From Candidatus Aenigmatarchaeota archaeon (GTDB lineage: Archaea > Aenigmatarchaeota > Aenigmatarchaeia > CG10238-14 > SCSR01): 64,000 nt of DNA. Made by a program: the position numbers and the translations under genes. A model generated the notes under the pieces. It saw only the letters and a list, made by a program, of their open reading frames with translations, was not told the origin of the DNA and ran no database searches. The DNA lies in contig JAWBWS010000001.1 of NCBI GenBank assembly GCA_038999725.1, forward strand, positions 64,001 through 128,000, read 5' to 3'. Of the stretch, positions 3,026-31,439 are shown in pieces (position 1 is the stretch's first letter; every line of letters starts with the position of its first letter).

Positions 3026-3137
3026 TAGCCCCGGGCAGATTCGAACTGCCGTGTTCAGGTTTCTTTCTTCATCTTTTATCCGAGCTTTAGACTTTAAGTC
3101 CAAAGCCTGACATCCTTGACCGCTAGATGACGGGGCT
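3026..3137 (-). tRNA. tRNA-Gln(UUG), 39-nt intron at 37/38 (3061-3099)
   Basis: AGCCCCG/CGGGGCT acceptor, TCAGG-CTTTGG[intron]A-CCTGA, GGCAG-TTCGAAT-CTGCC. Confidence 0.93.
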
Positions 3138-12626: not shown

Positions 12627-12686
12627 TCTCTTCCCCTTAAAAAATCTACAAATATAATATTAGTCGTGTAAAGAAATATAGATTAG

Positions 12687-12770
12687 GCCCCAGTAGCTCA
12701 GCCTGGAAGAGCAACTACCTCGTAAAGTCGAAAAAGTAGTGGGTCGAGGGTTCAAATCCCTCCTGGGGCT
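12687..12770 (+). tRNA. tRNA-Thr(CGU), 10-nt intron at 37/38
   Basis: GCCCCAG/CTGGGGC, ACTAC-CTCGTA[aagtcgaaaa]A-GTAGT, GAGGG-TTCAAAT-CCCTC. Confidence 0.9.
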
Positions 12771-12844
12771 TTATTTAATCCAAATCATTAAACCTGCACT
12801 AGCAAATAGAATGAATTAAAGGTTTTATAAGTTAATTCAATCTT

Positions 12845-14187: not shown

Positions 14188-14304
14188 GCGCTGGTAGTCC
14201 AGTCGAGAATGACTCTGGATTGGTCTAAGACGTCGATTTAAGCGGAACCCTGCCAACCAGAGGACAGAGCGGCGGAGACCCGGGTTCAAATCCCGGCCAG
14301 CGCA
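14188..14304 (+). tRNA. tRNA-Gly(GCC), three introns (D-loop 14204-14221; 29/30 14236-14247; 37/38 14256-14269)
   Basis: Removing the three segments gives a 73-nt cloverleaf: GCGCTGG...TCGCC-CTGCCAC-GGCGG...CCAGCGCA. Confidence 0.9.
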
Positions 14305-14987: not shown

Positions 14988-15105
14988 GCAGGGGTAGCCA
15001 AGCGGTTAAAGGCGGCAGGCTCAAGTTTGGTTGAGCTTTGATCTGAGATGAAAGAAGGAACCTGCTGGCTTAGTGCCTTCGTGGGTTCGAATCCCACCCC
15101 CTGCA
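14988..15105 (+). tRNA. tRNA-Leu(CAA), 34-nt intron at 37/38 (15026-15059)
   Basis: GCAGGGG/CCCCTGC, GCAGG-CTCAAG[intron]A-CCTGC, long variable arm GGC-TTAGT-GCC. Confidence 0.93.
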
Positions 15106-29184: not shown

Positions 29185-29234
29185 AAAAAGAAAATTATTT
29201 TTAAATTAGTTAAGCTTAAATAAAATTTTAGGAA

Positions 29235-29328
29235 GCCTCGTTAGCTCAGTTGGTAGAGCATCCGAAGAGTTAAAACTCTGGTGAACCTTGTAAGCGGAGG
29301 GTCGTGGGTTCAAATCCCACACGAGGCT
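29235..29328 (+). tRNA. tRNA-Thr(UGU), 21-nt intron at 30/31 (29265-29285)
   Basis: TCCG[aagagttaaaactctggtgaa]C-CTTGTAA-GCGGA; BHB helix CATC/GGTG. Confidence 0.92.
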
Positions 29329-29340
29329 TTCAAGCAAATT

Positions 29341-31335: not shown

Positions 31336-31439
31336 GGGGTCGTCGTCTAACCAGGTAGGACAGCAGGCTCCAGGTTCAATGGAGCTCTGACAAAAGATGA
31401 AGAAACCTGTATGTGAGGGTTCAAATCCCTCCGACCCCA
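31336..31439 (+). tRNA. tRNA-Trp(CCA), 31-nt intron at 37/38 (31374-31404)
   Basis: GGGGTCG/CGACCCC, GCAGG-CTCCAG[intron]A-CCTGT, GAGGG-TTCAAAT-CCCTC. Confidence 0.93.

Follow-up and report, generated by a model that had tools for sequence, protein, structure and literature searches.

In Archaea, the closest described counterpart of the elements presented here is the intron of euryarchaeal tRNA-Trp, which the available sections of two reviews (PMC4090602, PMC11408192) describe as a nested two-motif box C/D RNA of ~65 nucleotides (nt) that directs 2'-O-methylation at positions 34 and 39 (Cm34 and Um39). The available text of the 2014 review calls it the unique example of an intron guiding the modification of its own tRNA (PMC4090602), and that of the 2024 review cites the tRNA-Trp intron case only (PMC11408192). 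In Pyrococcus, according to the accessible part of PMC7994747, four C/D small RNAs (sRNAs) aim at position 34 of the tRNAs for Leu(CAA), Leu(UAA), Met and Trp, one of the four being the Trp intron. Here we analyse a 64,000-nt stretch of a Candidatus Aenigmatarchaeota genome (hereafter the window; G000:C1:64001-128000), in which the introns of tRNA-Trp(CCA), tRNA-Leu(CAA) and tRNA-Gln(UUG) share a compact module made of a guide strand and a single pair of boxes. We consider it probable that these introns carry a half-size, cis-embedded methylation guide of the box C/D type which acts on its own precursor tRNA, i.e. that they are working guides for 2'-O-methylation of the wobble base (Nm34). The module is a variant of the euryarchaeal tRNA-Trp intron guide.

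In the layout common to the three introns, six nucleotides complementary to tRNA positions 31-36 are followed by a single nucleotide, an NNGA box (D'), a short loop and UGA-NNN (C'), an arrangement that sets base 34, which is C34 in Trp and Leu(CAA) and U34 in Gln(UUG), opposite the fifth nucleotide upstream of NNGA (Table 1). The initial annotation of this DNA had given the coordinates and strings of the three introns exactly. It had also proposed that each 6-mer is complementary to positions 31-36 of the tRNA that carries it and co-varies with the anticodon; both points hold, the second over nine anticodon types. Guide and target thus stand in the expected relation: the guide lies directly 5' of D', it pairs continuously with its target, and the target nucleotide is opposite its fifth position. 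In Trp, positions 27-37 read GCAGG CUCCAG, the intron reads GUUCAA-UGGAGC-U-CUGA-CAAAAGAU-GAAGA-A, and A CCUGU follows from position 38; AGA of the C' box pairs with U-C-U of U-CUGA, and its GA would form tandem sheared pairs with the GA of D'. The Gln guide includes one U-G pair, at position 36, and in the RNAfold minimum-energy structure its helix runs on for 4 further pairs into the intron. A second motif pair was looked for and no further GA boxes were found in the three window introns. A covariance model, R1, built from 24 aligned anticodon arms (alignment A1), matches only these three arms in the window (E-values from 4e-23 to 4e-18; next best 0.033), which bears out the initial statement that the other introns there lack the motif.

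Table 1. Positions of the modules and of related features. Numbers are window positions unless a contig (C) or locus (L) is named; R1 is the covariance model described in the text, and guide positions are counted upstream from D'.
Feature	Position	Strand	Remarks
tRNA-Trp(CCA) gene, 31-nt intron at 37/38	31336..31439	+	Rfam tRNA 53.1 bits, arm parsed
Trp intron	31374..31404	+	R1 hit 31363-31410, E 4.4e-23
Trp target strand GCUCCA, tRNA 31-36	31367..31372	+	C34 = 31370; pairs with 31380-31385
Trp guide UGGAGC, -7 to -2	31380..31385	+	-5 = G31382, pairs with C34
Trp D' box CUGA	31387..31390	+	GA invariant in 24 A1 arms
Trp C' box U-GA-AGA	31398..31403	+	register supported by covariation
tRNA-Leu(CAA) gene, 34-nt intron 15026-15059	14988..15105	+	R1 hit 15015-15065, E 3.9e-18
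Leu(CAA) guide UUGAGC	15031..15036	+	pairs with 31-36 (15019-15024); -5 pairs with C34 (15022)
Leu(CAA) D' box UUGA	15038..15041	+	
Leu(CAA) C' box U-GA-AAG	15049..15054	+	A-U, A-U and G-U pairs with U-UU of U-UUGA
tRNA-Gln(UUG) gene, 39-nt intron 3099-3061	3026..3137	-	R1 hit 3110-3055, E 2.3e-18
Gln guide UAAAGC	3084..3089	-	pairs with 31-36 (3106-3101); -5 pairs with U34 (3103)
Gln D' box CGGA	3079..3082	-	
Gln C' box U-GA-AGA	3066..3071	-	
Gln purine tail AAGAA	3061..3065	-	beside 3' splice site
tRNA-Met(CAU), with module	C4:61186-61291		
tRNA-Lys(UUU), with module	C5:707-818		
tRNA-Glu(UUC), with module	C7:275-383	-	
tRNA-Arg(UCU), with module	C2:124413-124522	-	
tRNA-Leu(UAA), with module	C1:198336-198502	-	gene has second intron
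tRNA-Ser(UGA) 5' leader module	C3:100968-101005		locus L207, outside window
16S rRNA intron, ~81 nt	L206:2788-2868		on G000:C4, outside window
16S rRNA gene	L206:2052-4405		2354 nt
23S leader, K-loop-like strings	L206:9405-9421; L206:9513-9529		
tRNA-Arg(UCG) gene, 12-nt intron	C8:3849-3936	-	no D' box, no guide
tRNA-Thr(UGU) gene	29234-29329		intron near 30/31
tRNA-Thr(CGU) gene	12686-12771		10-nt intron
Multi-intron tRNA gene	14188-14304		C1:78188-78304

The Trp introns of Pyrococcus (sR50) and Haloferax volcanii are, as far as the accessible parts of the sources describe them, like the present ones in their 37/38 position, in a guide that runs across the anticodon and in the mutual exclusion of guide and bulge-helix-bulge (BHB) folds (PMC7994747, PMC4090602, PMC11408192). 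By the same partial accounts they differ in being ~65 nt or longer, in having two guides (for C34 and U39) and a C/D as well as a C'/D' motif, and in being confined to tRNA-Trp, whereas the modules described here sit in introns of 19-49 nt with one K-loop and one guide (130 arms, see below) on as many as nine anticodon types, with further modules in an rRNA intron and a tRNA leader. A dual guide of the sR50 type, with C, D', C' and D boxes, was not found in these introns, which have neither the room nor the boxes for a second guide. In the known Trp intron the guide lies just upstream of D', with C34 at D'+5. The module corresponds to the D'/C' half of that intron, without the terminal C/D motif and the second guide; it lacks in this a defining feature of the family, although it would work in the manner of a family member. 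The free C/D sRNAs of Pyrococcus share the target nucleotide and the tRNAs (Leu(CAA), Leu(UAA) and elongator Met), but are separate two-motif genes that act in trans (PMC7994747, accessible part). The present set comprises exactly those four Pyrococcus targets plus Gln(UUG), Lys(UUU), Glu(UUC), Arg(UCU) and sometimes Ser(UGA). Leu(CAA), Leu(UAA) and Trp are also the substrates of the protein-only Nm34 enzymes, bacterial TrmL and eukaryotic Trm7-Trm734, which use no RNA guide and are presumed to tune wobble decoding. No Rfam family matches the intron, and no description of single-motif guides in several tRNA introns was found in the literature outside subscription journals.

The initial annotation held that the layout is reused on several tRNAs. 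Indeed, the set is larger than the three introns it listed, with eight tRNAs of the genome carrying the module: Trp, Met, Leu(CAA), Leu(UAA), Gln(UUG), Lys(UUU), Glu(UUC) and Arg(UCU), the five added members having been located by ARAGORN with introns allowed and read by eye. When the whole 730-kb genome was scanned with a strict pattern (6-base-pair (bp) hairpin, 1 nt, YNGA, 3-8 nt, GAUGA), 25 places were found compared to 8.85 in shuffled sequence, and 8 of the 25 were tRNA anticodon arms; this excess, together with the share that falls in tRNA arms, argues that the layout is not due to chance. A loose scan for hairpin, NNGA and UGA gave 495 hits and was too noisy to discriminate, and a genome-wide scan for complements of all tRNA arms was equally noisy. 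Lys(CUU), which is intronless, and Ile(UAU), which has an ordinary intron, are without the module in this genome, as are Arg(CCU), Thr, Pro, Val, Ser(CGA), Ser(GGA), Ala, Asp and Leu(CAG), Leu(GAG) and Leu(UAG).

A search of related genomes with R1, as the initial annotation had suggested, found the layout conserved, with covariation, in 40 of 40 relatives (7 families, 27 genera), at 1-11 places per genome. We fetched 114 of the listed R1 hits, which together with A1 made 138 arms; 130 of these were parsed and eight were dropped, five as unparsed (because of an extra intron or a shifted stem in three, a truncated guide in one and the wrong strand in one) and three as lacking UGA. All 130 parsed arms have C34 or U34, in nine anticodon types (CCA 30, CAU 21, UUG 21, CAA 20, UUU 16, UUC 9, UAA 8, UCU 4, UGA 1). 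Their variable parts drift freely (5' loop 2-16 nt, K-loop 5-10 nt) while GA...UGA stays. Full-length tRNA-Trp was available from 22 relatives, all of which keep (U)GGAGC-N-YNGA-loop-UGA-purine tail, one of them with a truncated guide; the 5' loop part of their Trp introns varies from 3 to 13 nt, and intron length is 19-46 nt compared to 31 nt here. In a phylum-wide sample, R1 hits occurred in 94 of 151 genomes, and 20 hits from six other families parse identically (CCA 12, UUG 3, CAU 3, UCU 2). The Trp module is widespread; sets spanning several tRNAs are concentrated in this order and in one further family.

The register of the guide on the wobble base is strict. Nucleotides -2 to -7 pair with positions 31-36 at all six positions in 124 of the 130 arms and at five in the other six, and the 1-nt spacing places -5 on N34 in every one. 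In a second alignment of 100 arms (A2), which was itself fitted to the model, N34 and -5 form U-A in 52 arms and C-G in 48 with no mismatch, so that the initial claim of base 34 at D'+5 holds with Watson-Crick pairing in 100/100; U33 pairs with A at -4 in 100/100, C32 with G at -3 in 99/100 and position 31 with -2 in 96/100. Beyond position 36 the helix continues for 0-5 more pairs in the 130 arms, and for more where the anticodon is AU-rich: the mean number of extra pairs is 3.25 for UCU, 2.6 for UUG, 2.1 for UUU and 2.0 for UAA, compared to 0.5 for both CCA and CAA. These longer helices fit a requirement for stability, not a BHB helix fixed at 4 bp. The hairpin loop is only 3-4 nt in 57/130 arms, and the guide helix looks like a selected stable intramolecular duplex.

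We next turn to the boxes. The GA of D' and the downstream UGA are invariant in the 24 A1 arms; in the 130-arm table both were parsing criteria and are not independent counts. Over the 130 arms, counted without alignment by taking the last UGA of the intron, the first D' position (N1) pairs with the second base after UGA (N6) in 125 (U-A 84, C-G 39, U-G 2), compared to a mean of 98 and a maximum of 107 in a shuffle control. Of the five exceptions, four carry another UGA in their tail, and the pair returns if an earlier UGA is taken; the fifth (L166) can form it in the upstream GAUGA register only. The same pair is C-G 12 and U-A 12 in A1, with none unpaired, and U-A 72, C-G 26 and A-U 1 in A2 (n=99). 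Since both states occur within each of the CCA, CAA, UAA, UUG and UUU families, the N1-N6 switch must have happened several times. Of the adjacent positions, -1 forms a standard pair with N7 in 93/130 arms, and N2 with N5 in 81, with a further 35 U-U. UUGA is the commonest D' form (83 arms), followed by CUGA (29), CGGA (7) and others (11). The N1-N6 covariation therefore places the C' box at U-GA-NNN, 3 nt downstream of GAUGA, where the initial annotation had put it; the GAUGA register, present in 100/130 arms only and without covariation with N1, was rejected. NNGA and UGA with a short covarying stem fit a K-loop, in which the G-A pairs would be of sheared geometry. RNAfold minimum-energy structures for Leu, Arg, Met, Lys and Glu form a three-way junction of anticodon stem, guide hairpin and D'/C' hairpin.

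A complement to the anticodon loop inside an intron could simply be the strand that forms the BHB for the splicing endonuclease, an objection that the initial annotation had raised itself. However, the 130 arms contain a second such complement, a purine tail at the 3' end of the intron. Counting back from the last intron nucleotide n, n-2 faces C32 and is G in 130/130, n-3 faces U33 and is paired in 121/130, n-4 faces N34 (A opposite U34 in 55; A opposite C34, a mismatch, in 65) and n-5 faces N35, where 105/130 are paired with covariation (C-G 32, A-U 28, U-A 24, U-G 21). The helix of 32-35 with n-5 to n-2 has 4/4 pairs in 49 arms, 3/4 in 63, 2/4 in 17 and 1/4 in one, with 4/4 in 21/21 UUG and 15/16 UUU arms. 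The 3' bulge is AA|A in 104/130, and 93/130 arms show 2-3 pairs between i2-i4 and n-6 to n-8. The tail helix is a canonical hBHBh' structure, and the two 3-nt bulges and 4-bp helix of a BHB are provided by the tail, not by the guide; in Gln, AAAG (3066-3063) pairs with C32-U35 to give the canonical 4-bp central helix with bulges AA|A and GG|A. The motif-less Ile(UAU) intron of the genome has the same GAAGAA|A tail. Because the tail forms the BHB and is shared by an intron without the motif, the guide is not the BHB strand, and the complementarity is more than that of a splicing helix, the module being found outside introns as well. Archaeal BHB and relaxed BHB introns resemble the present ones in pairing with the anticodon loop, in the 37/38 position and in the 3-nt bulge AA|A at the 3' splice site; unlike their helices, the guide is a second and longer complement (6-11 bp), which buries the 5' splice site in 56/130 arms. 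Where the tail is short, the BHB helix takes in nucleotides of C', which makes the two folds, guide/K-loop and BHB, mutually exclusive. The endonucleases of DPANN archaea are reported to accept relaxed substrates (PMC5829648, accessible part). The C-A mismatch in the tail helix is conserved, with 65 of 71 C34 arms keeping A, not G, opposite C34, the base that the guide targets.

The module is not restricted to tRNA introns. Weaker R1 hits led to one in the 5' leader of tRNA-Ser(UGA), reading CUCAAGG-U-CUGA-UAAAAGAUGAUGAAAA and directly abutting the 5' end of the tRNA; CUCAAGG pairs with C31-G37 of the same tRNA, with -5 on U34, and the tRNA's own 12-nt intron has no module. The leader module is kept at the loci of five relatives (G007, G006, G004, G005/G003 and G014), and in G037 the intron, not the leader, harbours the Ser(UGA) module (L130). 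The module is absent from all other tRNA flanks of this genome. The 16S rRNA gene has an intron directly after CCCCGGUA that carries GGGUAUCU-U-CUGA-UUCAAGAU-GAAGA, whose guide is complementary to AGAUACCC, part of a conserved stretch (GGAUUAGAUACCC) that lies a few bases upstream, and whose -5 faces the U of AGAU. G007, G002, G011 and G030 have both intron and module, and G009, G026 and G031 lack an intron at this 16S site. A strict string, C[UCG]GA-N2-7-GAUGA[AG]GA, has 7 hits genome-wide, 5 of them in precursor segments (Ser leader, 16S intron, 23S leader).

The proteins that such guides would need are present. Fibrillarin (PF01269, E 6.1e-84), Nop5 (PF01798, E 2.7e-62) and L7Ae (PF01248, E 8e-31), whose presence the initial annotation had asked to be confirmed, are all encoded in the genome with scores over the curated cut-offs. 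In the mechanism that we propose, the intron strand just upstream of D' would pair with tRNA positions 31-36 and often further, and NNGA and the downstream UGA-NNN would fold into a K-loop with tandem G-A pairs on a short Watson-Crick stem. L7Ae would bind this K-loop and recruit Nop5-fibrillarin, and fibrillarin would 2'-O-methylate the base opposite the fifth guide nucleotide upstream of D', the wobble base 34, yielding Cm34 or Um34. The RNA would then refold, the purine tail displacing the guide on 32-35 to form the BHB, and the intron would be excised. What we infer from the sequence patterns described above is that L7Ae binds, that base 34 is methylated, that this precedes splicing and that the guide acts in cis and not in trans.

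Several points weigh against a methylation guide. Typical archaeal guides pair over 8-12 bp, longer than the cores seen here, which are just 6 bp in 57/130 arms. Burial of the 5' splice site in the guide helix means that a refolding step must be assumed. The helix starts at the anticodon stem, and a structural constraint could set the register, the match to N34 then being coincidental. Opposite N2 of D' there is mostly a Watson-Crick A-U pair, not the U-U of the classical box, and the introns fit only one NNGA...UGA pair where a box C/D RNA has two motifs. A single-site box C/D ribonucleoprotein (RNP), in the portion of Hardin and Batey 2006 available (PMC1635284), was active but site non-specific, specificity needing both motifs, and the second motif is called essential in Archaea in the accessible text of PMC8413462. 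This loss of specificity in single-site RNPs is the chief reservation about our reading. The engineered half-mer and hemi RNPs of that study and of Xue et al. 2010 (PMC1635284, PMC6239191; both as partially available) resemble the modules in having one K motif and one guide, and they assemble with L7Ae, Nop5 and fibrillarin. Hemi constructs, as described there, have a K-turn with a terminal stem and act in trans, whereas the modules here have a K-loop and a target tethered by a hairpin. Such tethering might supply the constraint that is missing from single-motif RNPs.

Three other explanations have to be weighed against a cis-acting Nm34 guide. The guide might work mainly in trans, with the excised linear or circular intron RNP, perhaps as a half-guide dimer on the Nop5 dimer, methylating other pre-tRNAs or mature tRNAs. 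Action in trans has been argued for the Haloferax Trp intron and is stated for the Trp intron in the accessible parts of the reviews (PMC4090602, PMC11408192); pairing two half-guides would restore a two-motif particle, and the extra guide pairs of Gln fit not only the intron but also positions 38-39 of the mature tRNA. However, the helix of the Lys, Arg and Met arms in this genome continues in intron-intron pairs, with C at -9 opposite intron G1 and not A38, the short hairpin loops are those expected of a selected intramolecular hairpin, and the Ser module, lying in a leader, is lost on 5' processing, in keeping with action on the precursor. We favour action in cis, as the initial annotation had thought probable, since the guide helix often passes the exon-intron junction and goes on as pairs within the intron, and regard a mainly trans-acting guide as unlikely.

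It could also be that the K-loop binds L7Ae, which serves other archaeal RNPs too, or another protein, as a folding or timing device that holds the anticodon-loop hairpin until splicing, with no methylation. The mutually exclusive guide and BHB conformers could then act as a switch, and a lone K motif supports methylation poorly in vitro according to the accessible part of PMC1635284. Yet such a device leaves unexplained why the module occurs only with C34 or U34, including on the four known archaeal Nm34 targets, why the 1-nt spacing that puts -5 on N34 is exact in all parsed arms, and why tRNA-Ser(UGA), whose own intron is ordinary, has a leader module; we hold it to be quite improbable. Finally, the motif could reflect the mere common descent of a mobile intron family, the anticodon complement being the BHB helix. 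Intron transposition among archaeal tRNA genes is known, in Thermoproteales, and the modules are similar in sequence. Against this, the BHB central helix comes from the purine tail, the K-loop stem is preserved by compensatory changes in different lineages and tRNA families, the 5' loop and K-loop drift freely with GA...UGA kept, and a tRNA leader and a 16S intron harbour the module too, all of which makes bare common descent highly unlikely.

A crude pattern scan of the genome for two-motif box C/D sRNAs gave no strict hits, and three loose hits compared to 1-5 in shuffles. It is conceivable, if on the doubtful side, that in this order fibrillarin-Nop5-L7Ae works mainly or only through single-K-loop guides in cis, in tRNA introns, a tRNA leader and the 16S intron, two-motif sRNAs not being its main clients. 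With regard to other wobble modifications, the genome, which is 93% complete, gave no match to ELP3 (TIGR01211) or to the PP-loop ATPase family PF01171 (NcsA/TtuA/TilS type). ELP3 is present in 67/151 genomes of the phylum sample, module-rich ones included, and in 11/31 genomes of the same family, among them the module-rich G017, G163 and G027. The idea that Um34 guides replace ELP3 or thiolation is unsupported: neither family was found in our genome, yet module-rich relatives carry ELP3. A tRNA-Ile(UAU) is present, which fits AUA decoding without a modified CAU tRNA.

The assembly (G000; relatives are labelled with G-numbers and contigs with C-numbers) is archaeal and comprises 729,769 bases in 9 contigs, with a GC content of ~31-38%; the sequencing runs that contain this DNA are labelled hot springs metagenome. 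The window holds an archaeal signal recognition particle RNA and six tRNAs at the level of Rfam. ARAGORN in default mode reported only 2 odd tRNAs in the window, and with introns allowed it misnamed many anticodons; anticodon arms were re-parsed by script and by eye, and several multi-intron tRNAs were left unparsed. Three other tRNA genes of the window, the last three in Table 1, have introns that are multiple or non-canonical in position, none with the module. Outside the window, the intron of tRNA-Arg(UCG), UUUCUUGAUGAA, contains a C-box-like UGAUGA that may be a remnant or chance. As for the rRNA genes, the 16S gene spans 2354 nt for a model of 1478 positions, implying at least one more, larger insertion, and an AT-rich stretch from near L206:3050 could be an intron with an open reading frame. 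Two K-loop-like strings, CUGA-N8-GAAGA, lie in the 5' leader of the 23S gene, the second within a UUCGC/GCGAA hairpin.

Were single-K-loop guides in cis the main or only clients of fibrillarin-Nop5-L7Ae in this order, the modules would represent natural half-mer C/D RNPs that owe their site specificity to the tethered target, and introns at 37/38 would gain a selectable function on a class of wobble-sensitive tRNAs. The half-guide could then be near an ancestral form, from which two-motif C/D RNAs would have arisen by duplication. If our main reading is true, the module would be the first natural single-motif guide of the box C/D type, making it testable why archaeal guides need two motifs; self-contained in ~25 nt, it is also a handy design for tethered RNA methylation. 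The unique Trp case would be extended to eight or nine tRNAs, including the classical wobble-uridine set of Gln, Lys, Glu and Arg(UCU). Such a system also bears on the persistence of introns beside the anticodon and on the tuning of wobble decoding in a genome of 0.7 Mb.

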